Shown one piece after another: positions 1,935 to 30,901 of a DNA stretch of 33,994 bases (within the stretch, counting starts at the first letter, position 1; each line of letters opens with the position of its first letter). The DNA lies in IMG/VR virus record IMGVR_UViG_2802429241_000004; one strand, 5' to 3'. The position numbers and the translations under genes were made by a program. The notes below the pieces were generated by a model. The model did no database searches. It was not told the origin of the DNA and saw only the letters and a program-made list of their open reading frames with translations. Origin of the DNA: a virus (Duplodnaviria; Heunggongvirae; Uroviricota; Caudoviricetes).

Positions 1935-3098
1935 TCACTCATTATCTTCTGTTTCGTACTCCACATCAGAAAGCCTGACCTCAAGCTCTAAGGACGTCGT
2001 GAAGCCGCTATTATTCAGAAAATGTGTCACCTTAGTGATTGTCCAGTCCTGCTCGTCTATGACGCGCTTAAAGCCTGACACTCTGACCGGTGTTTCCGTG
2101 TAAATATCTGCCCGACCGGTAGCCAGGCTGATGGAGAACTCCGCTACGCCCCGTTGCAGTTTATCCCACTTCGCCTGAGCGGCGCGCATGGCCTGCGCTT
2201 TCGTGGCATATACCGTAGTCAGGGCAAAAACGTTATCAGCCTCACCGGCCATGTATTCACCTTCGCGCGCTTCCGGTACTTTAGGCGCTTTCTTCTGCCT
2301 GACCGGTTTCGCTTTCGGGTGCTCCAGTGCGCGCAGGTGTTTTTCTTTCTTTTTGCGTTTCAGTTTTACCTTCTGCTTTTGCGGCTTCGGGTCTTTGGTG
2401 TGTAACCACTTTGCCGTTACGCCGGTGTAAGCTCCACGGTCAGCAATCGCAAAATGATGACGGTCGCCGTCGCTGCGGGTGATGGTAATCTGCGGGATTT
2501 TTTTACCGCTGGCCGTCACCCCCTGCCCCGCTTTGAGAAACAGCAGTTTTCCCATTTTTACCGACACCTCACCGCCGTTGCGTTCAGCAAGACGGGTCAG
2601 GAATTTCGCATCAGACTCCTGCGACTGGTCGATGTGCGGGACTTTAATTCCGGCCAGTGACGGAGCGACACTGGCCTCCAGCTTGTTACGGGAGGCTATC
2701 GCCTCAACAATCGCACCGAGTGTGGTGTCATGCCAGGAGCCTTCCCGGCGGGAATTGAGCGTCCCGCGAAAATCTGCACTCCGGGCGCGGATGGTGACCA
2801 CATCCGGCGCGCCCCGGTGTTCTACCTCATCAACGGTGAATTTCCCTTTGCATACCAGGGCAAAACCTTTCCAGCCGATATACACCGTCAGGACAGCGCC
2901 ACGAACCGGCAGCCCGACCTGCCCGTCGGCATCGTTCAGTTCAATATCAAGCTGGTCAGCCTCAAAGCCCCGGCTATCCGTCAGGGTCATACTCATCAGA
3001 CGGTCGCTGATATTGCCGGTAATATCCCTGCTGTCGAGCATCAGCATGTAATCCGGCGTCAGCGTACTGCCTGCATCAAATGTCAGTGCATCCAGCAT
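1935..3098 (-). CDS. D: tail protein D (387 aa)
   Basis: Position between U and ogr and size match P2 gpD. Confidence 0.8.
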   Translation of the reverse strand: MLDALTFDAGSTLTPDYMLMLDSRDITGNISDRLMSMTLTDSRGFEADQLDIELNDADGQVGLPVRGAVLTVYIGWKGFALVCKGKFTVDEVEHRGAPDVVTIRARSADFRGTLNSRREGSWHDTTLGAIVEAIASRNKLEASVAPSLAGIKVPHIDQSQESDAKFLTRLAERNGGEVSVKMGKLLFLKAGQGVTASGKKIPQITITRSDGDRHHFAIADRGAYTGVTAKWLHTKDPKPQKQKVKLKRKKKEKHLRALEHPKAKPVRQKKAPKVPEAREGEYMAGEADNVFALTTVYATKAQAMRAAQAKWDKLQRGVAEFSISLATGRADIYTETPVRVSGFKRVIDEQDWTITKVTHFLNNSGFTTSLELEVRLSDVEYETEDNE

Positions 3099-3577
3099 TA
3101 TCCCGCCCCCGTCATACCCGTGAATTTAGTCGCCATACTGCCAGCCTTACCGATGAGCGATTCCGCCTGTTTACCGATATCGCCATAAAGCGCGGCCAGT
3201 GATTCATCAACGCGGGTGAGCGACAGCGTAAAATCAATTTTTCGGGGTGTGCCGTCTGCAAAGAAAATACTCCCTGTTTCACTCACCCTGCTGATGACAT
3301 ACATGCCGTAAATCATGCCGGTGCCATCCAGCAACGGCCACGCCCGGCCTTCCTCAGCCATCAGCCTGAGCGTGGTCATCGTCAGCTTGCCGCCGGTCAG
3401 TTCGGGATAAAGCACACCGGCAAGCGTGATGTTTTCCTCACCCACACCGAGAAACTGGTAGGCCTCCTGTTTACCGATACGGGAATTTGACGGCCAGCGA
3501 TAATCTGATTCACGCTGCATGGTCTGGTGTGGCAGCGTCTGGCGCATAAAAACAAACATACCTAACGCGAGCATCAT
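3098..3577 (-). CDS. U: tail protein U (159 aa)
   Basis: Size and position match P2 gpU; stop overlaps the D start. Confidence 0.8.
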   Translation of the reverse strand: MMLALGMFVFMRQTLPHQTMQRESDYRWPSNSRIGKQEAYQFLGVGEENITLAGVLYPELTGGKLTMTTLRLMAEEGRAWPLLDGTGMIYGMYVISRVSETGSIFFADGTPRKIDFTLSLTRVDESLAALYGDIGKQAESLIGKAGSMATKFTGMTGAG

Positions 3578-22145: not shown

Positions 22146-23918
22146 ATGACCATCACCACAGACACCACTCTTTTACACGACCCGCGTCGTCAGGCGGCGC
22201 TGCTGTACTGGCAGGGATTTTCCGTGCCGCAGATTGCCGCCATGTTGCAGATGAAACGCCCGACGGTGCAGAGCTGGAAACAGCGCGACGGCTGGGACAG
22301 CGTTGCCCCCATCAGCCGTGTCGAAATGAGTCTGGAAGCGCGACTGACCCAGCTCATCATCAAACCGCAGAAAACCGGCGGTGACTTCAAGGAAATTGAC
22401 CTGCTGGGACGCCAGATTGAACGACTGGCGCGGGTAAATCGTTACAGCCAGACCGGCAACGAGGCAGACCTTAATCCGAACGTCGCTAACCGCAACAAAG
22501 GCGGGCGGCGCAAACCGAAAAAAAATTTTTTCAGTGACGAGGCCATCGAAAAGCTGGAGCAGATTTTCTTTGAGCAGTCTTTCGACTATCAGTTGCACTG
22601 GTATCGCGCCGGGCTTGAGCACCGCATCCGCGATATCCTGAAATCCCGCCAGATTGGCGCGACGTTTTATTTTTCCCGCGAGGCGCTGCTGCGCGCCCTG
22701 AAAACCGGTCATAACCAGATTTTTCTGTCGGCCAGTAAAACGCAGGCGTATGTGTTCCGCGAATACATCATCGCCTTTGCCCGTCTGGTTGACGTTGACC
22801 TGACCGGTGACCCGATTGTCCTGGGCAATAACGGCGCAAAACTGATTTTTCTCGGCACCAACTCCAACACCGCACAGAGCCATAACGGCGACCTGTACGT
22901 CGACGAGATTTTCTGGATCCCGAATTTTCAGGTACTGCGTAAGGTGGCATCAGGTATGGCCTCACAGAGCCACCTGCGCTCGACCTATTTCTCCACCCCG
23001 TCCACGCTGGCGCACGACGCCTACCCGTTCTGGTCGGGTGAACTGTTTAACCGGGGACGCGCCAGCGCCGCCGAACGCGTGGAAATCGACGTCAGTCATA
23101 ACGCCCTTGCCGGTGGGCTTCTCTGTGCGGACGGCCAGTGGCGGCAGATTGTCACCATTGAGGACGCCCTGAAAGGCGGCTGCACGCTGTTCGACATTGA
23201 GCAGCTCAAACGTGAAAACAGCGCCGACGATTTTAAAAACCTGTTCATGTGTGAATTTGTTGACGACAAGGCGTCGGTGTTCCCGTTCGAGGAGCTGCAA
23301 CGCTGCATGGTCGACACGCTGGAAGAATGGGAAGACTATGCGCCGTTTGCCGCCAATCCGTTCGGCTCACGTCCGGTATGGATTGGTTACGACCCGTCAC
23401 ACCGTGGCGACAGCGCCGGATGCGTGGTGCTGGCACCGCCGGTGGTGGCCGGTGGCAAATTCAGAATACTTGAGCGTCACCAGTGGAAAGGCATGGACTT
23501 TGCCACTCAGGCTGAATCCATCCGCAAACTCACCGGAAAATACAACGTCGAATACATCGGTATTGATGCCACCGGCCTCGGTGTCGGCGTGTTCCAGCTC
23601 GTGCGCTCGTTCTATCCCGCCGCGCGCGACATCCGCTACACGCCGGAAATGAAAACCGCAATGGTGCTCAAGGCAAAAGACGTTATCCGCCGTGGCTGTC
23701 TGGAATATGACGTCAGCGCCACCGACATCACCAGCTCGTTTATGGCTATCCGCAAGACCATGACCAGCAGCGGACGCAGCGCCACCTATGAGGCCAGCCG
23801 CAGCGAGGAAGCCAGCCACGCCGACCTCGCCTGGGCAACCATGCACGCCCTGTTAAATGAGCCACTCACCGCCGGTATCAGCACTCCGCTGACATCCACC
23901 ATTCTGGAGTTTTACTGA
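22146..23918 (+). CDS. P: terminase large (ATPase) subunit P (590 aa)
   Basis: Start at MTITTDTTLLHDPRRQAALLYWQG (ATG at 22146); plus-strand, divergent from O as in P2. Confidence 0.85.
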   Translation: MTITTDTTLLHDPRRQAALLYWQGFSVPQIAAMLQMKRPTVQSWKQRDGWDSVAPISRVEMSLEARLTQLIIKPQKTGGDFKEIDLLGRQIERLARVNRYSQTGNEADLNPNVANRNKGGRRKPKKNFFSDEAIEKLEQIFFEQSFDYQLHWYRAGLEHRIRDILKSRQIGATFYFSREALLRALKTGHNQIFLSASKTQAYVFREYIIAFARLVDVDLTGDPIVLGNNGAKLIFLGTNSNTAQSHNGDLYVDEIFWIPNFQVLRKVASGMASQSHLRSTYFSTPSTLAHDAYPFWSGELFNRGRASAAERVEIDVSHNALAGGLLCADGQWRQIVTIEDALKGGCTLFDIEQLKRENSADDFKNLFMCEFVDDKASVFPFEELQRCMVDTLEEWEDYAPFAANPFGSRPVWIGYDPSHRGDSAGCVVLAPPVVAGGKFRILERHQWKGMDFATQAESIRKLTGKYNVEYIGIDATGLGVGVFQLVRSFYPAARDIRYTPEMKTAMVLKAKDVIRRGCLEYDVSATDITSSFMAIRKTMTSSGRSATYEASRSEEASHADLAWATMHALLNEPLTAGISTPLTSTILEFY

Positions 23919-24952
23919 TGAGCAAGAAAAAAGGGAAAACACCGCGACCTGCGGCAAAAACAATCACCGCCAGCGCCCCGAAAATGGAGGCATTCACCTT
24001 TGGCGAGCCGGTGCCGGTACTCGACCGCCGTGACATTCTGGATTATGTCGAGTGCATCAGTAACGGCAGATGGTATGAGCCACCGGTCAGCTTTACCGGT
24101 CTGGCAAAAAGCCTGCGTGCTGCCGTGCATCACAGCTCACCGATTTACGTCAAACGTAATATTCTGGCCTCGACATTTATCCCGCATCCGTGGCTTTCCC
24201 AGCAGGATTTCAGCCGCTTTGTGCTGGATTTTCTGGTGTTCGGTAATGCGTTTCTGGAAAAGCGTTACAGCACCACCGGTAAGGTCATCAGACTGGAAAC
24301 CTCACCGGCAAAATATACCCGCCGTGGCGTGGAGGAGGATGTTTACTGGTGGGTGCCGTCCTTCAACGAGCCGACAGCCTTCACGCCCGGCTCCGTGTTT
24401 CACCTGCTGGAGCCGGATATTAATCAGGAGCTGTACGGCCTGCCGGAATATCTCAGCGCCCTTAACTCTGCCTGGCTGAATGAGTCGGCCACGCTGTTCC
24501 GCCGCAAGTATTACGAAAACGGCGCTCATGCCGGATACATTATGTACGTCACCGATGCCGTGCAGGATCGCAACGATATCGAAATGCTTCGCGAAAACAT
24601 GGTCAAGTCGAAAGGCCGCAACAACTTTAAAAATCTGTTTCTCTATGCCCCACAGGGGAAAGCCGACGGTATTAAAATTATCCCCCTCAGTGAAGTGGCA
24701 ACGAAGGACGATTTTTTTAATATCAAAAAAGCCAGCGCCGCTGACCTGCTGGACGCGCACCGCATCCCCTTTCAGTTGATGGGCGGCAAGCCGGAGAACG
24801 TCGGATCGCTGGGTGATATTGAGAAAGTGGCAAAGGTCTTTGTCCGCAATGAGCTTATCCCGTTACAGGACAGGATTCGGGAAATAAACGACTGGCTCGG
24901 TCAGGAGGTCATCCGCTTTAAAAACTACTCACTGGACACTGACAACGGCTGA
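23918..24952 (+). CDS. Q: portal protein Q
   Basis: 344-aa protein starting MSKKKGKTPRPAAKT, overlapping the P stop (ATGA), last gene before cos. Confidence 0.85.
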   Translation: MSKKKGKTPRPAAKTITASAPKMEAFTFGEPVPVLDRRDILDYVECISNGRWYEPPVSFTGLAKSLRAAVHHSSPIYVKRNILASTFIPHPWLSQQDFSRFVLDFLVFGNAFLEKRYSTTGKVIRLETSPAKYTRRGVEEDVYWWVPSFNEPTAFTPGSVFHLLEPDINQELYGLPEYLSALNSAWLNESATLFRRKYYENGAHAGYIMYVTDAVQDRNDIEMLRENMVKSKGRNNFKNLFLYAPQGKADGIKIIPLSEVATKDDFFNIKKASAADLLDAHRIPFQLMGGKPENVGSLGDIEKVAKVFVRNELIPLQDRIREINDWLGQEVIRFKNYSLDTDNG

Positions 24953-24979: not shown

Positions 24980-25121
24980 ACACCCCGTCATCACGCCCTC
25001 ACACGCTCACCTCCACGCAAAACAGCCCGCAGACAAACCAACGCCCCGGCACACAATCTAAACGCCATCACGACGCGCTCAGACGCTGAAAAAATAAAAT
25101 CAGCACCACCGCCAGCGCGCA

Positions 25122-25140
25122 GTGCTTTCCCCGCCTCGCC
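25122..25140. other. cos cohesive-end site (19 nt)
   Basis: GTGCTTTCCCCGCCTCGCC is the reverse complement of the P2 cohesive end as I recall it (GGCGAGGCGGGGAAAGCAC); located just after Q as expected. Confidence 0.6.
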
Positions 25141-25289
25141 CGCCCGCTTCATGAAGCGGTTTGAATGCAGTTGTATACCGACGCAGACTTCCTGCCAGTT
25201 CTAGCTACTCATAACAAAAAAAAACATTACAGATGAATGCAAAATCATGCAACTAATGAAGGCGTACAGGCTAGGTGAGAAAATAAATG

Positions 25290-26090
25290 CTATTTCATCA
25301 GTCCTATAAAAGCTGCTGTCATGCTACCCAATGCACCAATAGCAGCAAATAACGTTGCCCAAAACATGCTTTTTTGGCTACGAATATTCTCATTATATCG
25401 TTGTTCTTCATTATTGAAGTGATTTAACGTATTAATTGCTTTTCCAGTGGGCTTATAACCATCTCGAGTCTTTGAAATGTCCCCACTCTCTACAAGGGAA
25501 TCCAGACATAAGCGAAGTTCTTTTATGAGTCGAGAATAATCATCATGGTAGATCCATAAACGTCCTGCCACATCATTCATAATTAGAGTCTCACTGAATG
25601 GTTTTTCCCCTTGCTGCTCTCGATAAATTCTGACAATTGCAGCCAATACCGTCATTACATCGGTTATCTCCTGCTTGCGTTGTCGATACAAATACTTCTC
25701 ACGACTTAGCTTTTTATTTTGACGATTCGCTATTCTTCTAAATCTAAGCACATTAAAAAAAGATAAGTCGTCCAATGAGTCAAACTTCAATTCATGCGCA
25801 TGATAATAATAAATTCCAGAAAAGGAATTTGATGTAAGTCGTTCTGGTTTAAGAATTGTATCAATATTGAAAGTTTTATTCTGATGATTCCACTTCTTAA
25901 CCTTTATAATTCCGTTTGAATAACTATCAAAAAGATAGTCATTACCCTCGTCATCCTTAATGTAAACGGAATACATATCGTAATGAATGGCACTCTCATA
26001 CATTAAACTAATTTTGCCATTTTCAGGAGTCTTCTTTGACTCAAAAACTTTTAGAAACTTTACAACATCAACTTTATTTTTATACCTCAT
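25290..26090 (-). CDS. hypothetical tail-anchored membrane protein (266 aa, single C-terminal TM helix); candidate effector of the RT system
   Basis: AT-rich ORF directly downstream of the RT gene on the same strand; C-terminus MFWATLFAAIGALGSMTAAFIGLMK is a predicted TM helix; N-terminal domain has no motif I recognise. Confidence 0.6.
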   Translation of the reverse strand: MRYKNKVDVVKFLKVFESKKTPENGKISLMYESAIHYDMYSVYIKDDEGNDYLFDSYSNGIIKVKKWNHQNKTFNIDTILKPERLTSNSFSGIYYYHAHELKFDSLDDLSFFNVLRFRRIANRQNKKLSREKYLYRQRKQEITDVMTVLAAIVRIYREQQGEKPFSETLIMNDVAGRLWIYHDDYSRLIKELRLCLDSLVESGDISKTRDGYKPTGKAINTLNHFNNEEQRYNENIRSQKSMFWATLFAAIGALGSMTAAFIGLMK

Positions 26091-26255
26091 ACATTCAGCC
26101 TTGACTGTAAACCACCATATTAAATTATTGCACTAACGACTCGTACCACTTATTGTTCAACCCAGTCAGAATTGAAAGCAAACTTCTGCACTAACTGGGT
26201 TACCATCATAATATATCGATACTAATAAAATCCGATATCATTATATTTTAGTGTA

Positions 26256-27206
26256 TTAAACCGATGTATTTGCTTTCAACGTCAATACTTTCGATCTGTA
26301 ACGTTTTTCAATAACCCCCATTGAATATAAACGACCAAATAATTTCTTTGCTGTTCTTGTATCTTTAGCTTGTTCTACATCTTTTATTATTTTCCAAAGC
26401 TCTATTTCTCTAGCCATAAGATAATGCTGTTCGTTCCTAACCTTTAAGCTATCCCCAAATACTATAACTCCTGTCACCAGTTTAGGCTTATCCCCAGCAT
26501 ATAATTTCGTTTTAGTTGGATGCATCACGTGTCCATGCTTATTAATAATCTTACGAATCACGCTGCAAAACAATCGATTTACATTATCTCCAGAAAAAGT
26601 AAGATCATCGACATAAACTGTCATTTTCACACGAAACTTCTCACAAAGTTGATTCATTTCATCAAACATTCTGGAATTTGCAAAATATGCTAATGGCATA
26701 CTAATCCGACTACCCGTTGGCAATCGTTCATGACAGGTACATATATGAGATAAAATATCAGCCACATCTGGCGACATTTTCATTATTGAGAAAAAGAAAG
26801 AAAATATCATTTCTCTTGTTGTTGACGGAAAAAAAGATTTAATATCTGTAGTCATCAACTTCTGATGATTGAGATGTGCTTTAGCATTTGTTATGTTAGA
26901 GCAACTTTTTTTACCAGAGTGCAAATACTCTGGCATAGCTATACGCAATAATAAACTCGCAATACGTGTATGCACTACATCTAATTTTTCTAAAGGCTTT
27001 TGTATTTTCCGTATTTTATTTTTTTTAGAAAGCTGTTCAAAAATAGAGTAATTACCCTCATCCCTCTTCAAAGCTGATAGATCATTGATACTAACGCAGA
27101 GCAAGCTAGCCAACTTTTTTTTACTTTTAAGTTTATAAAGTGGCGAATCCGTAATAGGATAAGATTTATTTTTAGTTGAAACCTTCAGTTTAATCCTTTT
27201 TTTCAT
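26256..27206 (-). CDS. retron-type reverse transcriptase (316 aa)
   Basis: RT motifs read directly from the translation: NAKAH (NAxxH), DIKSFFPS, LPTGSRISMPLAYFA (QG..SP block), YVDD catalytic box, LVTGVIV (retron VTG). Block order parallels the Ec86 RT as I recall it. Confidence 0.8.
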   Translation of the reverse strand: MKKRIKLKVSTKNKSYPITDSPLYKLKSKKKLASLLCVSINDLSALKRDEGNYSIFEQLSKKNKIRKIQKPLEKLDVVHTRIASLLLRIAMPEYLHSGKKSCSNITNAKAHLNHQKLMTTDIKSFFPSTTREMIFSFFFSIMKMSPDVADILSHICTCHERLPTGSRISMPLAYFANSRMFDEMNQLCEKFRVKMTVYVDDLTFSGDNVNRLFCSVIRKIINKHGHVMHPTKTKLYAGDKPKLVTGVIVFGDSLKVRNEQHYLMAREIELWKIIKDVEQAKDTRTAKKLFGRLYSMGVIEKRYRSKVLTLKANTSV

Positions 27207-27504
27207 TTCTTTTACTTACCCACTCTAGTATATCCAGAACTTTCCCTGCCAGTTTTAAACGTAAACTTTTGGATAACCGTCCTTGTGTCCCTAATGATTC
27301 TGAAAAAAAGACTAAAGAGGATACTGGCATGTCGAAATGGGAAGCATAACGCTGTAAAATATCAATCGACGGCACCCATAGTCCGCTTTCAATCTCTACT
27401 ATTCTGCTTTTTGGAATACCTAAAGATGATGATAAGTCAACTATTGATTCTTTATGGTATTGCCTTATTAAACGAAGGGCTTTATGCAACATAGGCAACT
27501 CCAT
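27190..27504 (-). CDS. XRE/Cro-type helix-turn-helix protein (104 aa)
   Basis: Classic HTH segment ESIVDLSSSLGIPKSRIVEIESGLWVPSIDILQRYASHFDMP; its stop overlaps the RT start by 17 nt. Confidence 0.65.
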   Translation of the reverse strand: MELPMLHKALRLIRQYHKESIVDLSSSLGIPKSRIVEIESGLWVPSIDILQRYASHFDMPVSSLVFFSESLGTQGRLSKSLRLKLAGKVLDILEWVSKRNEKKD

Positions 27505-27528
27505 CTTGTTGAAACTAGGGAGGACGCA

Positions 27529-27684
27529 TTACTCATCTCCCCCTTCAAAGAAGTCAACTGCGCGAGTGATCCAATAAAGTAGTCTAATAAGCCACTTAAT
27601 TACACCCCAAGCGTTAGGAGTCTTCTTTTTCCGGTTTAACTTGTTTTGCGCCTGCTGTTCGTTGGTTACTTTATCATTTTTCAT
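27529..27684 (-). CDS. small hypothetical protein (51 aa) with amphipathic or hydrophobic core
   Basis: Internal ATG at 27682-27684 preceded by a consensus AAGGAG Shine-Dalgarno with 6-nt spacer; product MKNDKVTNEQQAQNKLNRKKKTPNAWGVIKWLIRLLYWITRAVDFFEGGDE. The 97-aa upstream extension is less likely. Confidence 0.4.
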   Translation of the reverse strand: MKNDKVTNEQQAQNKLNRKKKTPNAWGVIKWLIRLLYWITRAVDFFEGGDE

Positions 27685-27786
27685 GACCTGCTCCTTATGT
27701 CCACGGTGTGCAAACGATATGTCTGCTCCAACACCATGGCTCGCCCTCATAAGGATGAGATTGAACAGCACCAGCTCCCTGCTCCA

Positions 27787-27813
27787 CGAACCCTTTGTCG
27801 CCCAAAGGGTTCG
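27787..27813 (-). other. stable hairpin (11-bp perfect stem CGAACCCTTTG / CAAAGGGTTCG, 5-nt loop) within a locally GC-richer structured segment; possible ncRNA element
   Basis: Perfect inverted repeat read directly from the sequence; no flanking T-tract on either strand, so it is not a simple terminator. Confidence 0.35.
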
Positions 27814-28126
27814 AATACCCATACGCTATACCGCTTGAATCAGAGACTCCTGTCGCTGACAGAGGCGTTGCGCGGGGTAAATGTTAGAAAGCATTAGCTT
27901 TCCACGGGCAATAAATACCCAATTGATGGCGATTTATCTCACTAACTAACCAATGATTGAATCATACCAAGTAAACCGTTGTATTTGATCTCTCCTTATA
28001 TAATTTTTTGTTATTAATCAATATAAATAAATAACAAAAAGAAATATAGCTAATTTTCATCCGTCTCATCACAATAAATATCAACAAATCAAGAATATCG
28101 TTTGATTATCTAGTCTTTCCAATTCA

Positions 28127-30415
28127 TTAAAATAAAAACAATGCTTCATCTTCAATTCCCGGCCAAACATCAGCAACCGGATACATGAATTTTTTCCCGT
28201 CATAATTTACGGTCGCGCCACGCGCCAGCGCCTCAAGCTCCCATCGCTGAGGGCTGATACCGTTCTGAGCAAGGTCAACGCGGATACGGGTAATTTGCAT
28301 TCGTTCCGACCTGGTCAGCCTGGCTGATGGCGCTATTTCATGCGGTTTTAACGGGCTTCCGTCTCTTTGCTGACGGTTTGGTGTTCTCAGTCCGTGTTTT
28401 AATGCACCCCTGAGCGCCCTCACGACCTCCGGGTCACTCCATTCGATGACACCGTCATCAACCAGATTAAGCACTGCTGCGGCGTGTTCAGAAGGCGTGG
28501 GAGCCGGTGACGAAGTATCACCACCGGTGAGCTTTCCACAGTTATTGACAGGACTCCGAGGCGCGGCGATGCCGCTTTTTAAAGTCAAAGGCTCAACGAC
28601 CGGAACTTTCGGCACAATGCGCCAGTCCGTCGTTCTGGTGATATGAATATGACGCGCGCCGAGATGCGGCGCGTAAATGCCGACCACTCTCTCGACTTCT
28701 TCCTCGTACTCGTTCACGTCATCCGACGGGCTACGGGCGACCCTGACAGTCTGACAATCGCGCGGGACATTTGCCCCACCCTGCGCGCTGATATACAGCG
28801 CAAAATCGCCACTGTCTGCGGCGGCGCGTGCAGCCTCCACGCGTTCGTCAAATTCATCAGCAATGCTGACGCCGCGAGGCAATTTACGTAGCTCACGGTA
28901 AGCTCCCATTGTCGGCAGGCCAACCGTTTTAAATTGCGGGATGCGCCACGTTGACGCCCATGCGGTAACAGCCGCCGCAGTATCTTTCAGCGGTCTGCCG
29001 GTATCGTTATCGAGCTGACCATCCAGTGCATAGCCGTCGATATTTTTTGAAATGTATTTCGCGATATATCCCGCAGCACCGCCCCGGTTAAGGTGTTTTG
29101 CCTGAAAACGGTTTCGCGCGGCTCCTCTTTCGTCGCCATCCTCTTTGAGCGCATAGCGACGCATGATTTCGATAATCTGGTTACGCTGGCGTGGATTACA
29201 AAAAAGCATCATATGCCAGTGCGGCGTTCCGTCGTGGTGTGGCTCGACGACTCGCAAACCGTAGACCTGTAAATCATTATCCTTGAATGCCGTGCGCATC
29301 AGGCTCCAGATACGGCAGAGATAACGCTGCGCATCCTTTGGATTAAATGCCTCATCATTCCAGCCGTGATTAAGCTGGACGGTTTTATTTTCGCCTTTTC
29401 CAACCTGACGTGTCGGGTGATACTTTGACGGCGCGGTAAGAGTGATAAACATCCCCACATCACCCTCTGAGGCGGCGTAACGCTCAATACCGGCAATGGT
29501 GTTCATCAGCTCCATCCGGCGAATTTCAGGATTAGAAATACTGCCCATCACCTTACTGATAAGGTCGATGCGCTCGCCGGTTTCCCTGTTTTCAAGGTCA
29601 CACGATTTAAGAAACTCCAGATTTGCCTGGCGGCGCGCACGCACATCACGAATGGCATGTTTACTGGCATAAGGAGAACGGTCTTTATTGACCTCCCCGA
29701 CAGCAATCAGTAACGCCTCATGCCAGCGCATACGCTGGCCTTTAAGCTGATGAGTCCACCACTCATCGTTAAACAGACGGGCAATGGCAGAATATGCCTG
29801 CCTCGTGGTTATCTGTCCTTTACGGTATTTTTTCCAGTAGAGCGGGGAAATATTGAAAGCACGTGCAGCGCCAGCAACATGACCATAGAGGTGAGCCTGC
29901 GCCTCATCCGTAAACAGCGATTCTTTTTCGCCATGCGCATCCACCCAGGCATCGCTGAGTTCCTCATACATCATGAAAAGCTGCGATGAGATACGGGCGG
30001 CAAACTTTTTCAGCTCCTTGTCATTCATTCCCGGCAGGCGCGCATACTGGTCGCGCTCTGCCAGAAACAGCAACGACGCGTCGGTGTTCATTTCATGGCG
30101 CTGATTCACGCGCTCAATGCGCGGCCATAAACGACGCTGAAAAGTGGATGTGAGGAAATAAAACCCGTGCACCGGGCTTTTATTGCGCCGGATGTAGTCA
30201 TAGCGTGAAGTAAACAGCGAACGCAAAAAGTAAGGCAGGCGGTTAATCGTGGATAAAACACCTTGCACCTGACGCATCTCGTCACGTGTAAGGGGTCTTT
30301 CGCGCCCGACGGCCTCGCGTGGCGCGTTCCATGCATAAGCACCGGTAAACGTCTTACCGGTGCCTGCGGCAAATGCTGACGGAGGGACAAAATGCCCGGA
30401 GGCTTTAACGGCCAT
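28127..30415 (-). CDS. A: replication initiation protein A (rolling-circle nickase)
   Basis: Large protein matching P2 gpA in size and position; preferred start MAVKASGHFVPP at 30413-30415 (alternative upstream start 30457). Confidence 0.85.
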   Translation of the reverse strand: MAVKASGHFVPPSAFAAGTGKTFTGAYAWNAPREAVGRERPLTRDEMRQVQGVLSTINRLPYFLRSLFTSRYDYIRRNKSPVHGFYFLTSTFQRRLWPRIERVNQRHEMNTDASLLFLAERDQYARLPGMNDKELKKFAARISSQLFMMYEELSDAWVDAHGEKESLFTDEAQAHLYGHVAGAARAFNISPLYWKKYRKGQITTRQAYSAIARLFNDEWWTHQLKGQRMRWHEALLIAVGEVNKDRSPYASKHAIRDVRARRQANLEFLKSCDLENRETGERIDLISKVMGSISNPEIRRMELMNTIAGIERYAASEGDVGMFITLTAPSKYHPTRQVGKGENKTVQLNHGWNDEAFNPKDAQRYLCRIWSLMRTAFKDNDLQVYGLRVVEPHHDGTPHWHMMLFCNPRQRNQIIEIMRRYALKEDGDERGAARNRFQAKHLNRGGAAGYIAKYISKNIDGYALDGQLDNDTGRPLKDTAAAVTAWASTWRIPQFKTVGLPTMGAYRELRKLPRGVSIADEFDERVEAARAAADSGDFALYISAQGGANVPRDCQTVRVARSPSDDVNEYEEEVERVVGIYAPHLGARHIHITRTTDWRIVPKVPVVEPLTLKSGIAAPRSPVNNCGKLTGGDTSSPAPTPSEHAAAVLNLVDDGVIEWSDPEVVRALRGALKHGLRTPNRQQRDGSPLKPHEIAPSARLTRSERMQITRIRVDLAQNGISPQRWELEALARGATVNYDGKKFMYPVADVWPGIEDEALFLF

Positions 30416-30680
30416 GTGAGCCAAAAGCCTCTGAACAACGCTTGCTGAGTTGCTCAACCTGAGCGTTTAAATCAGCAAAAGATTTTGCGTTTCCGGTCAG
30501 AATATCGTGATGCATCATGCCGGAAACGAGCTGGCTTAATTTCGGGTAATAACCAACCACCGCCAGCCATTCCTGACCGGCGTTTTTACCGCTTTCCGCT
30601 CTTTTTTTCTCGTGGAGAATAAACTGAAAGCTGTCACTGGTAACGACATAACGTTCGCCAATTTCGATACGAATACTCAT
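30405..30680 (-). CDS. P2 orf83-like hypothetical protein (91 aa)
   Basis: Small ORF immediately upstream of A in the early operon. Confidence 0.6.
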   Translation of the reverse strand: MSIRIEIGERYVVTSDSFQFILHEKKRAESGKNAGQEWLAVVGYYPKLSQLVSGMMHHDILTGNAKSFADLNAQVEQLSKRCSEAFGSHGR

Positions 30681-30901
30681 GCCATTCTCCGGTAATGCTT
30701 GTTTTTTGCTTCAAAGACTGACTGGCAGGAAACACAACGCGTGGCTGACGGATAAGCCGCACGACGGGCAGCAGGTATTGGCGCATCACACTCTTCGCAA
30801 ACCAGTGCAGAAGCACAGCAATGTTTTACCCTTGCCGCGTTAATCTGGCGCTCCAGTAATTCAGCCTGTTGTTCCTGAATAAAATCTACGTTGTCCGGCA
30901 T
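30677..30901 (-). CDS. TraR/DksA-type C4 zinc-finger protein (P2 orf82-like)
   Basis: CxxC...CxxC arrangement (CEECDAPIPAARRAAYPSATRCVSCQ). Confidence 0.65.
   Translation of the reverse strand: MPDNVDFIQEQQAELLERQINAARVKHCCASALVCEECDAPIPAARRAAYPSATRCVSCQSVFEAKNKHYRRMA

Follow-up and report, generated by a model that had tools for sequence, protein, structure and literature searches.

The locus and its genes

The window analysed here is a stretch of 33,994 nucleotides (nt) from a virus of the Caudoviricetes (IMG/VR virus record IMGVR_UViG_2802429241_000004). Our subject is a module on its minus strand, in which a non-coding RNA (ncRNA), a gene for a small protein (SP) of 51 amino acids (aa), an XRE-type helix-turn-helix (HTH) gene and a gene for a reverse transcriptase (RT) of 316 aa follow one another in that order. 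The SP gene (27529..27684, minus strand) runs from an ATG at 27684-27682 to a TAA stop codon at 27531-27529 and encodes MKNDKVTNEQQAQNKLNRKKKTPNAWGVIKWLIRLLYWITRAVDFFEGGDE. Direct reading confirmed what the first-pass annotation had described, a 51-aa open reading frame (ORF) with an AAGGAG Shine-Dalgarno (SD) sequence (27696-27691, minus strand) separated from the ATG by a spacer of 6 nt. The HTH gene (27190..27504, minus strand) has its first in-frame ATG at 27504, which would give a protein of 104 aa, and its stop codon at 27192-27190. It was described as translationally coupled to the RT gene (26256..27206, minus strand; active site YVDD), and the HTH stop overlaps the RT start by 17 nt.

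PADLOC identified the RT as RT_VI (2.4e-106 over the full length; the next profile, RT_III-A, scored 7e-45) and the HTH protein as HTH_VI (2.5e-31, profile positions 1-91 of 92). Since both proteins fall into these families, we assign the SP/HTH/RT locus by sequence to the Type VI retrons, the class being that of Mestre et al. 2020. In Pfam the RT matches RVT_1, and the HTH protein reaches PF01381 (HTH_3) with an E value of 2e-4, which is below the Pfam cut-off; the HTH protein also matches phage 'transcriptional regulator' PHROGs. Type VI retrons of this architecture are already described in two preprints, one by Zhang et al. 2025 (10.1101/2025.10.22.683967) on Retron-Vpa2 of Vibrio parahaemolyticus, and one by García-Rodríguez et al. 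2026 (10.64898/2026.04.27.721009) on Retron-Sen3 of Salmonella enterica. The present locus is not a system of a new kind; it adds an uncharacterised E. coli/P2 example to a recently described class. Its RT is 81% identical to WP_000746343.1, the O157 copy, which the RT tree of García-Rodríguez et al. places in the 'Large' lineage together with WP_001461245.1 of E. coli C5; the two close relatives in this lineage are 81% and 65% identical to our RT. RTs from two Vibrio species other than that of Retron-Vpa2 are 59-60% identical to it. García-Rodríguez et al. place Retron-Vpa2 in the same 'Large' lineage, and on these sequence relations we assign the locus, which is cargo of a P2-like prophage, to the Vpa2-like 'Large' lineage of Type VI retrons.

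The HTH protein probably starts at the ATG at 27492 (100 aa) rather than at 27504, because a GGAG lies 6 nt upstream of the former, the Prokaryotic Genome Annotation Pipeline (PGAP) places the start there in the identical E. coli record, every HTH homologue starts with MLHKAL or MINKAL, and the HTH_VI profile match begins at residue 5 of the longer form. The HTH gene thus follows the small ORF as first reported, and the gap, given then as 25 nt, is 24 nt to the ATG at 27504 or 36 nt to the likelier one at 27492.

The composition of the SP agrees with its initial description as a protein with a basic N-terminus, an amphipathic or hydrophobic core and an acidic C-terminus: its net charge is +5 over residues 1-24 and -4 over residues 44-51, and residues 25-43 are amphipathic, with a hydrophobic moment of 0.6-0.78 and positive Kyte-Doolittle hydropathy. 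The suggestion that it is a small membrane peptide found no support. Since K30, R34 and R41 interrupt the hydrophobic segment and its longest uncharged run is of at most 8 residues, well short of a transmembrane stretch, the segment is an amphipathic helix and not a classical transmembrane span. An AlphaFold2 model of the SP contains two helices, at residues 3-21 and 23-49 (predicted local distance difference test score 72, and 74-89 over residues 21-40). PGAP lists the SP in the identical E. coli record as the hypothetical protein WP_016233353.1. Searches of Pfam, NCBIfam and PADLOC gave no match, and PHROGs alone has a family for it, phrog_15287 (1e-34), whose function is given there as unknown.

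In order to follow the SP through related retrons, loci were drawn from phage records, from a collection of one genome per species (30 loci) and from IMG/VR (46 loci). The 30 species-level loci were obtained with an alignment of eight RT sequences; the same scan with a single RT as the query confirmed nothing. In about 30 further loci the HTH-RT pair is directly preceded by an SD-led ORF of 45-55 aa, and an SP-like ORF was found in essentially every locus that has such a pair, two of them listing solely a longer ATG-extended frame (63 and 85 aa). The genera include Escherichia, Klebsiella, Acerihabitans, Vibrio, Xenorhabdus, Shewanella, Colwellia, Cellvibrio, Pasteurella and Yersinia, among others, and in the last five of these and in others the ORF persists at an RT identity of 37-48%, where the DNA can no longer be aligned. 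The proteins share a polar N-terminus, in which D/E-Q-Q is frequent, a basic patch, an aromatic/hydrophobic amphipathic helix and an acidic tail, and an AAGGA or GGAG SD-like motif precedes the start codon in nearly all homologues. The frame is intact in all 37 of the 37 loci that share the upstream RNA, and the ratio of nonsynonymous to synonymous substitution rates (dN/dS) is 0.1-0.45 among seven enterobacterial copies of 51 codons. With the frame kept throughout and dN/dS below 0.5, the small ORF is a real, conserved gene under purifying selection.

A word-indexed protein search gave three matches, the query being short, and an exhaustive search with the SP profile against 1.84 billion representatives gave 12. 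Ten of the 12 are SP-like, of 47-55 aa, one of them in a 99-aa extended form; of the remaining two, one is what is left of a frameshifted SP and the other matches by chance, being a repetitive protein of 828 aa. The sole disrupted SP we encountered is P0041, a cluster representative of 50 aa. It follows the SP for the initial 21 residues (MKNDKLTNEQQAQNKSNLKK...) before diverging, and looks like a frameshifted SP.

The SP frame is open further upstream, to an ATG at 27822, which makes a 97-aa ORF (27529-27822, minus strand). This extended frame has its own database family, phrog_5826, and cluster representatives P0001 (80 aa) and P0034 (99 aa). We rejected it as the true gene: the upstream frame is lost in E. 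coli C5, UBA5654 and Acerihabitans, and the SD sequence precedes the internal ATG. The 97-aa ORF is an annotation artefact of the conserved upstream ncRNA.

The structured RNA around the SP gene

The 496 nt upstream of and across the SP ORF fold more stably than shuffled sequences (z = -5.1). Using nhmmer, the region was found in 39 sequences (38 loci and the window), and a consensus structure was derived with RNAalifold from a MAFFT alignment of 21 non-redundant homologues, on which the pairing values below are based. Its 56 consensus pairs are 95.5% paired across the 21 sequences, as against 45-52% when the partners are slid by one to three columns, and 35 pairs carry compensatory changes, as against 8-15 in the slid controls; none of 500 shuffles reached the observed values. 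The SP coding sequence is therefore embedded in a conserved structured hybrid RNA (hyRNA) of about 450 nt. By computation, this RNA spans the SP gene and has both a template-like hairpin and flanking inverted repeats. A scan of positions 25000-29000 against Rfam 15 at E <= 1 matched no family.

The predicted hyRNA occupies 27505..27954 (minus strand), its ends being estimates, with a transcript start near 27954. A candidate promoter at 27961..27989 (minus strand), proposed from the alignment, consists of a -35 element ATCAAA (27989-27984) and an extended -10 element TGgTATGAT (27969-27961), and aligns with the TTGAC(A/T)-17/18 nt-TAnnnT of Vibrio, Xenorhabdus, Colwellia and Cellvibrio loci. 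A scan for consensus promoters and terminators yielded no terminator, nor any convincing promoter ahead of the RNA; it missed the candidate because of the weak -35 element. A TATATA near 28000 was also considered as the -10 element and was dropped in favour of 27969-27961, which aligns with the boxes of the distant loci.

The 5' part of the RNA begins with two short hairpins (27886..27921, minus strand): H1, which pairs 27921-27916 with 27910-27905, and H2, which pairs GGAAAGC (27903-27897) with GCUUUCU (27892-27886). Both are 98-99% paired, with four covarying pairs each. They are followed by a long imperfect hairpin (27814..27885, minus strand), the candidate msd, which is closed by a conserved UACCC...GGGUA. 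Length variation made a column-wise search for its helices too noisy, and we folded each sequence separately instead. All homologues form one long hairpin of 62-123 nt at this position, with a conserved and covarying base (GCGC/GCGU as against CAUG/CAUG) and a variable middle. Since its position corresponds to that of the stem-loop from which Retron-Vpa2 makes multicopy single-stranded DNA (msDNA), we consider it the probable template for reverse transcription. Next comes hairpin H3 (27787..27813, minus strand), CGAACCCUUUG-GGCGAC-CAAAGGGUUCG, which is 94.7% paired with 8 of 10 pairs covarying. Its loop holds direct repeat 1, GGGCGA (27803-27798), a motif that is invariant or nearly so in the 21 sequences and is the counterpart of the conserved msd-loop repeat known from Type VI hyRNAs.

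Downstream of H3, a long-range inverted repeat brackets the gene for the SP. Its 5' arm, IR1 (UGGAGCAGGGAG, 27775..27786, minus strand), pairs with IR2 (CUCCCUAGUUUCA, 27522-27510); the helix is 97.8% paired and has five compensatory pairs, one of which is A-U in nine, G-C in seven and G-U in five sequences. Within it, the 5' strand of helix H5 (UGCUGUUC, 27763..27770, minus strand) pairs with GAACAGCA (27660-27653, minus strand), which is at the same time codons 9-11 of the SP, and closes the riboregulator arm that holds the SD and the AUG; H5 is 100% paired, with five of its eight pairs covarying. Helix H6 joins GGCGCA (27652-27647, minus strand), SP codons 12-13, to UGCGUC (27528-27523), and is 100% paired and covarying. 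The H6 3' strand and IR2 together (27510..27528, minus strand) lie directly after the SP stop codon and are conserved though non-coding. IR1/IR2, H5 and H6 thus form a three-way junction, one arm of which contains the SD and the AUG, and another the rest of the coding sequence. Because codons 9-13 form strands of H5 and H6, the conservation of the D/E-Q-Q motif is in part an RNA constraint. In the minimum free energy (MFE) fold the outermost pairing is CCAUC/GAUGG, which involves the first HTH ATG; it was rejected, as it is not conserved in homologues.

The arm closed by H5 contains an anti-SD element, UCCUUAUG (27748..27755, minus strand), which is a perfect complement of CAUAAGGA (27699-27692) at the SP ribosome-binding site (RBS). 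RNAduplex found the anti-SD/SD duplex in 21 of 21 homologues, and both strands change by lineage: UUCCUUAUA/UAUAAGGAA, UCUCUUAUUG/CAAUAGGAGA, CCUAUAUUUG/UAAAUAUGGG and ACCUUUAAUUA/UAAUUAAAGGU. Immediately 3' of the anti-SD lies direct repeat 2, again GGGCGA (27741..27746, minus strand), in invariant columns; by analogy with Retron-Vpa2, it would be the site at which an msDNA copy of repeat 1 binds. Between repeat 2 and the SD, the MFE fold has a further stem-loop, B (27700..27739, minus strand), the sequence and length of which vary by lineage.

At the 3' end of the RNA, GUUUCA (27515-27510) can pair either with UGGAGC of IR1 (27786-27781) or with a 5'-proximal UGAGAU (27941-27936). Both pairings are maintained at 97% or more in the 21 homologues, the one with UGAGAU at 97.6% and with weak covariation. 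That these alternatives constitute a two-state RNA switch, with an a1/a2-like pairing as one of its states, is a speculative idea which we think improbable. Were it true, priming of the RT would be mechanically coupled to the opening of the anti-SD/SD helix, and the RNA itself, beyond msDNA or HTH, would set the timing of toxin translation; translational control of the Vpa2 type and protein-antitoxin control of the Sen3 type could then both operate in the lineage.

The position of the SP gene in this RNA bears on another explanation, already raised in the first-pass annotation, by which the 51 codons are a chance open frame over non-coding retron RNA and are not translated. The ORF does lie inside a structured RNA, part of its conservation (codons 9-11 and 12-13) coincides with H5 and H6, the 97-aa extension is open in some E. 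coli loci merely through conservation of the ncRNA, and the SP has no Pfam, NCBIfam or PADLOC match. If the frame were coincidental, homologues could keep the structure and lose the frame, and none of the 37 compared has done so. Frame, length (47-55 aa), SD and the pattern of charge and hydrophobicity outlast any alignable DNA, dN/dS is low, and homologous ORFs are toxic in experiments and lose function through stop or frameshift mutations. We regard a chance frame as scarcely credible. The earlier suspicion was right in that the ORF overlies structured RNA and wrong in treating this as an alternative to coding; both are true together.

Relation to Retron-Vpa2 and Retron-Sen3 and the control of the SP

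Retron-Vpa2 was found to produce a three-arm hybrid RNA of about 470 nt that contains the msr-msd and the SP ORF, with the RBS and AUG held in stem-loops and an inverted repeat at the 3' end (Zhang et al.). Its SP is toxic on its own, and toxicity is abolished by K15* and by mutations of the hydrophobic core; the HTH mutation R7D and deletion of the non-coding part of the RNA are toxic as well (Zhang et al.). RT, HTH and hyRNA co-purify, HTH represses reverse transcription, and loss of HTH raises msDNA about fivefold (Zhang et al.). Lambda Red functions trigger the accumulation of msDNA, which is required for translation of the SP and is sufficient in trans (Zhang et al.). The same authors report conserved 7-nt direct repeats in the msd loop and in the riboregulator of Type VI hyRNAs, and propose that the msDNA copy of repeat 1 binds repeat 2.

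The window SP matches the Vpa2 SP in BLASTP with an E value of 5e-7 at 27% identity, and hhalign of a 17-member SP profile against the Vpa2 SP gave a probability of 92% (E 5.5e-7), colinear and with DQQ in register. The functionally tested Vpa2 positions K15, I39 and F45 have the same residues at the same numbers in the window SP, although the Vpa2 sequence, a reconstruction from Table S3 of García-Rodríguez et al., could be wrong by one residue. We take the two proteins to be homologous by sequence. Both loci have the order ncRNA, SP, HTH, RT, and both HTH proteins have R7, counted here from the ATG at 27492; in Vpa2, replacing this residue (R7D) is toxic. The SPs are colinear (51 aa here, 55 aa in Vpa2) and share D/E-Q-Q, K15, the basic patch, the aromatic/hydrophobic C-terminal helix and an F-D/E-G-G-D tail; as a helical protein of about 50 aa with a hydrophobic C-terminal helix, the window SP has the properties of the Vpa2 type. 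The RNAs agree in a length of about 450-470 nt, a long msd hairpin, an inverted repeat bracketing the SP, a sequestered RBS and direct repeats. The two systems differ in that SP identity is just 19-27%, our retron has E. coli as its host and a P2-like prophage as its carrier, and its RT has YVDD at the active site where Vpa2 has YADD.

Retron-Sen3 belongs to another lineage, cl2075, and has the order SP-HTH-RT; its single-stranded DNA (ssDNA) and SP are constitutive, HTH is a protein antitoxin, and inhibition of RecBCD is the trigger (García-Rodríguez et al.). The Sen3 SP is toxic, HTH neutralises it without the RNA or the RT, and a frameshift in HTH cannot be maintained (García-Rodríguez et al.). 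Our locus resembles it in gene order and in an SP gene inside a structured transcript flanked by IR1 and IR2; HTH of Sen3 is protective and associates with the RT. Sen3 differs in its RT sublineage and SP cluster, its SP having 79 aa with an N-terminal extension and negligible identity to SPs of the Vpa2 type, and also in that it makes ssDNA constitutively and is controlled after translation. The features of cl2075 SPs, namely a length of 79 aa, some 25 additional polar residues at the N-terminus and an amphipathic helix of the pattern R-I-x-D-I-x-L/I, are not found here: the window SP has neither the extension nor a RITDIAIRAV-type motif, and the RT relatives are in the 'Large' clade and not in cl2075.

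Based on these comparisons, we consider it highly probable that the locus is a Type VI retron in which the SP is the effector and HTH is the negative regulator of the SP or of the retron. By analogy, the SP is the predicted toxic effector, so that a tiny gene with no model in Pfam, NCBIfam or PADLOC, listed by PGAP as hypothetical, would prove to be the part of a retron that does the killing. The idea of a toxin-antitoxin-like module was sound in as much as a toxin-like SP forms a module with HTH and RT, because in the homologous systems the SP has toxic activity, and losing HTH is toxic or lethal as well; the supposed direction, in which the module controls the RT system, appears inverted, with the SP by homology as the output and the product of the RT as what controls it.

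HTH had been proposed to act as a regulator that binds a promoter at 27.7-28.1 kb. In the corresponding explanation, HTH would be an XRE repressor of the operon promoter, and the small ORF a leader or regulatory peptide, or a toxin-antitoxin partner, controlling the RT. HTH does match XRE-type profiles and the 'transcriptional regulator' PHROGs, its gene comes first among those of appreciable size in the operon, and the fivefold increase in Vpa2 msDNA on loss of HTH could in principle be a transcriptional effect. However, 27.7-28.0 kb is predicted to be transcribed into structured, covarying RNA and is not free promoter DNA, the Vpa2 HTH co-immunoprecipitates with RT and hyRNA, and the Sen3 HTH neutralises SP made from a foreign promoter. 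In both studied systems the SP is the effector for defence and toxicity and not a regulator of the RT, and a search for a repeated operator-like motif was without success. We think this explanation very unlikely; by analogy with the two studied proteins, HTH is more probably a repressor or antitoxin bound to the RT and RNA than a promoter-binding regulator.

The mechanism we would propose for the effector reading is as follows. A single hybrid RNA of about 450 nt would carry the structured non-coding part and then the SP gene, bracketed by IR1 and IR2. In the resting state the RBS of the SP would be paired with the anti-SD and little SP would be made. HTH, the product of the next gene, with its translation coupled to that of the RT, would sit with the RT on the hybrid RNA and restrain reverse transcription, the SP, or both. 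On infection, phage recombination or anti-RecBCD functions would cause the ssDNA product of the RT to accumulate, and this msDNA would open the riboregulator, perhaps through pairing of its copy of the GGGCGA loop with the second GGGCGA beside the anti-SD. The SP would then be translated, and its amphipathic C-terminal helix would arrest the cell in an abortive infection. The gene content, the protein families, selection on the SP frame, the covarying RNA including SD sequestration and the homology of the SP with that of Vpa2 are established in this analysis; SP toxicity, the role of HTH, msDNA dependence, the triggers and defence are taken from the preprints on homologues. For the central step, an msDNA-triggered translational switch of the Vpa2 type at this locus, we hold the case to be evenly balanced.

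Several points weigh against such a switch. Column-based pairing of the anti-SD/SD helix is 81%, a value lowered by indels, and several per-sequence duplex energies beat shuffled sequences modestly (0-36 of 200 shuffles were as good). The single-sequence MFE fold leaves the SD unpaired and the anti-SD in a local hairpin, so that the sequestering helix is one of at least two competing conformations. The transcript ends, the msDNA, the toxicity of the SP and defence are all things that we infer for this locus, and the Vpa2 SP used for comparison is, as stated, a reconstruction. Moreover, Sen3 is controlled differently, with a constitutive SP and an HTH antitoxin, and homology alone does not carry the control point over from one system to the other.

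Control of the Sen3 type would mean that the SP is made constitutively and neutralised by HTH, that loss of RecBCD on infection frees it, and that neither the RNA nor msDNA gates translation. In Retron-Sen3 itself the SP is seen without phage, besides the neutralisation without RNA or RT and the HTH frameshift described above. At the loci compared here SP and HTH are always co-inherited, two loci of Xenorhabdus hominickii have a frameshifted RT and intact SP and HTH, as expected of an addictive pair, and the SD is exposed in the MFE fold. On the other side stand the placement of the locus in the 'Large' lineage of Vpa2 and not in cl2075, a Vpa2-like SP of 51 aa without the 25-residue cl2075 extension, and the conservation, with compensatory change, of the anti-SD/SD pairing and the GGGCGA repeats. 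We consider Sen3-type control here, also in the form of some neutralisation of the SP by HTH, rather unlikely. The two kinds of control are compatible and may coexist. The mechanism of Type VI retrons is in dispute between msDNA-triggered translation and a protein antitoxin, and the locus offers nucleotides on which this can be tested in native E. coli: the sequestered SD, SP codons 9-13 with their dual constraint, and the two GGGCGA repeats.

Canonical retrons provide abortive-infection defence, monitoring phage recombination or anti-RecBCD functions. Those such as Retron-Eco1/Ec86, Eco6 and Sen2 resemble the locus in combining an RT with a structured ncRNA that has inverted repeats at its ends and a long hairpin as template. 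In them, plentiful msDNA acts as the antitoxin and a separate protein of larger size as the effector, whereas here the effector ORF lies inside the retron RNA and, by homology, msDNA would activate the effector. A further parallel is the hok/sok type I toxin-antitoxin system, in which a toxin of about 50 aa has a hydrophobic helix and long-range folding of the mRNA sequesters the SD and blocks translation. Here no antisense RNA antitoxin is evident, the proposed activator is reverse-transcribed ssDNA, there is an HTH protein partner, and the SP helix is amphipathic and not transmembrane; the resemblance is one of logic, not of membership. Closer in kind is Retron-Eco12, a Type VI retron of E. 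coli whose operon is of the same type and which is reported to defend against lambda vir without detectable msDNA (Zhang et al.). Our locus is possibly identical or close to it; Retron-Eco12 may also be the O157:H7 variant (82% nt identity) or another.

Genomic setting and variant loci

The retron has the P2 replication gene A (30457-28127, minus strand) on one side and the portal gene (23918-24952) on the other. The gpA-gpQ interval is a cargo and defence hotspot of P2-like phages (Rousset et al. 2022, PMC9122126), and it is this placement, as context, that supports a putative role of the locus in anti-phage defence. The 2.9-kb module at 25200-28130 has a 100% identical counterpart in E. coli 65COLEC. 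Related modules of about 82-85% nt identity are present in 100 of 5,426 complete E. coli genomes, O157:H7 among them, and others were found in Klebsiella and Escherichia peduoviruses. Upstream of gene A (window 30405-30700, compared with L001 8219-8931), 65COLEC has a gene of the PAPS-reductase family and the window has P2-type DUF5405/TraR-like ORFs; because the two differ here despite an identical retron module, the prophage backbone is mosaic and the window probably comes from another strain.

A few related loci depart from the common arrangement. At two loci, L013 (Xenorhabdus koppenhoeferi) and L032 (Endozoicomonas arenosclerae), the ORF scan detected neither an SP nor an HTH ahead of the RT. 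What precedes the RT in L013 looks as if it had been replaced or cut short, and L032 has no recognisable HTH ORF. These may be degraded or variant Type VI loci. In the two Xenorhabdus hominickii loci (L029 and L030, about 2013-3453) a frameshift splits the RT into pieces of 152 and 184 aa, with SP, HTH and hybrid RNA intact. This would fit an addictive SP-HTH pair, or an RT whose decay is tolerated; a sequencing error is also possible.

Downstream of the RT, an ORF of 266 aa (25290-26090, minus strand) starts after 165 nt and has a C-terminal hydrophobic segment, MFWATLFAAIGALGSMTAAFIGLM. It has no Pfam, PADLOC or NCBIfam match and matches phrog_7611 (unknown function) at 2.5e-147. We considered it as a fourth component of the retron and rejected this, a homologue of 72% identity being present in a retron-free gpA-portal hotspot of Enterobacter, where it adjoins a 243-aa protein of unknown function. 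The 266-aa ORF is therefore separate cargo of the hotspot, and may be another defence gene.

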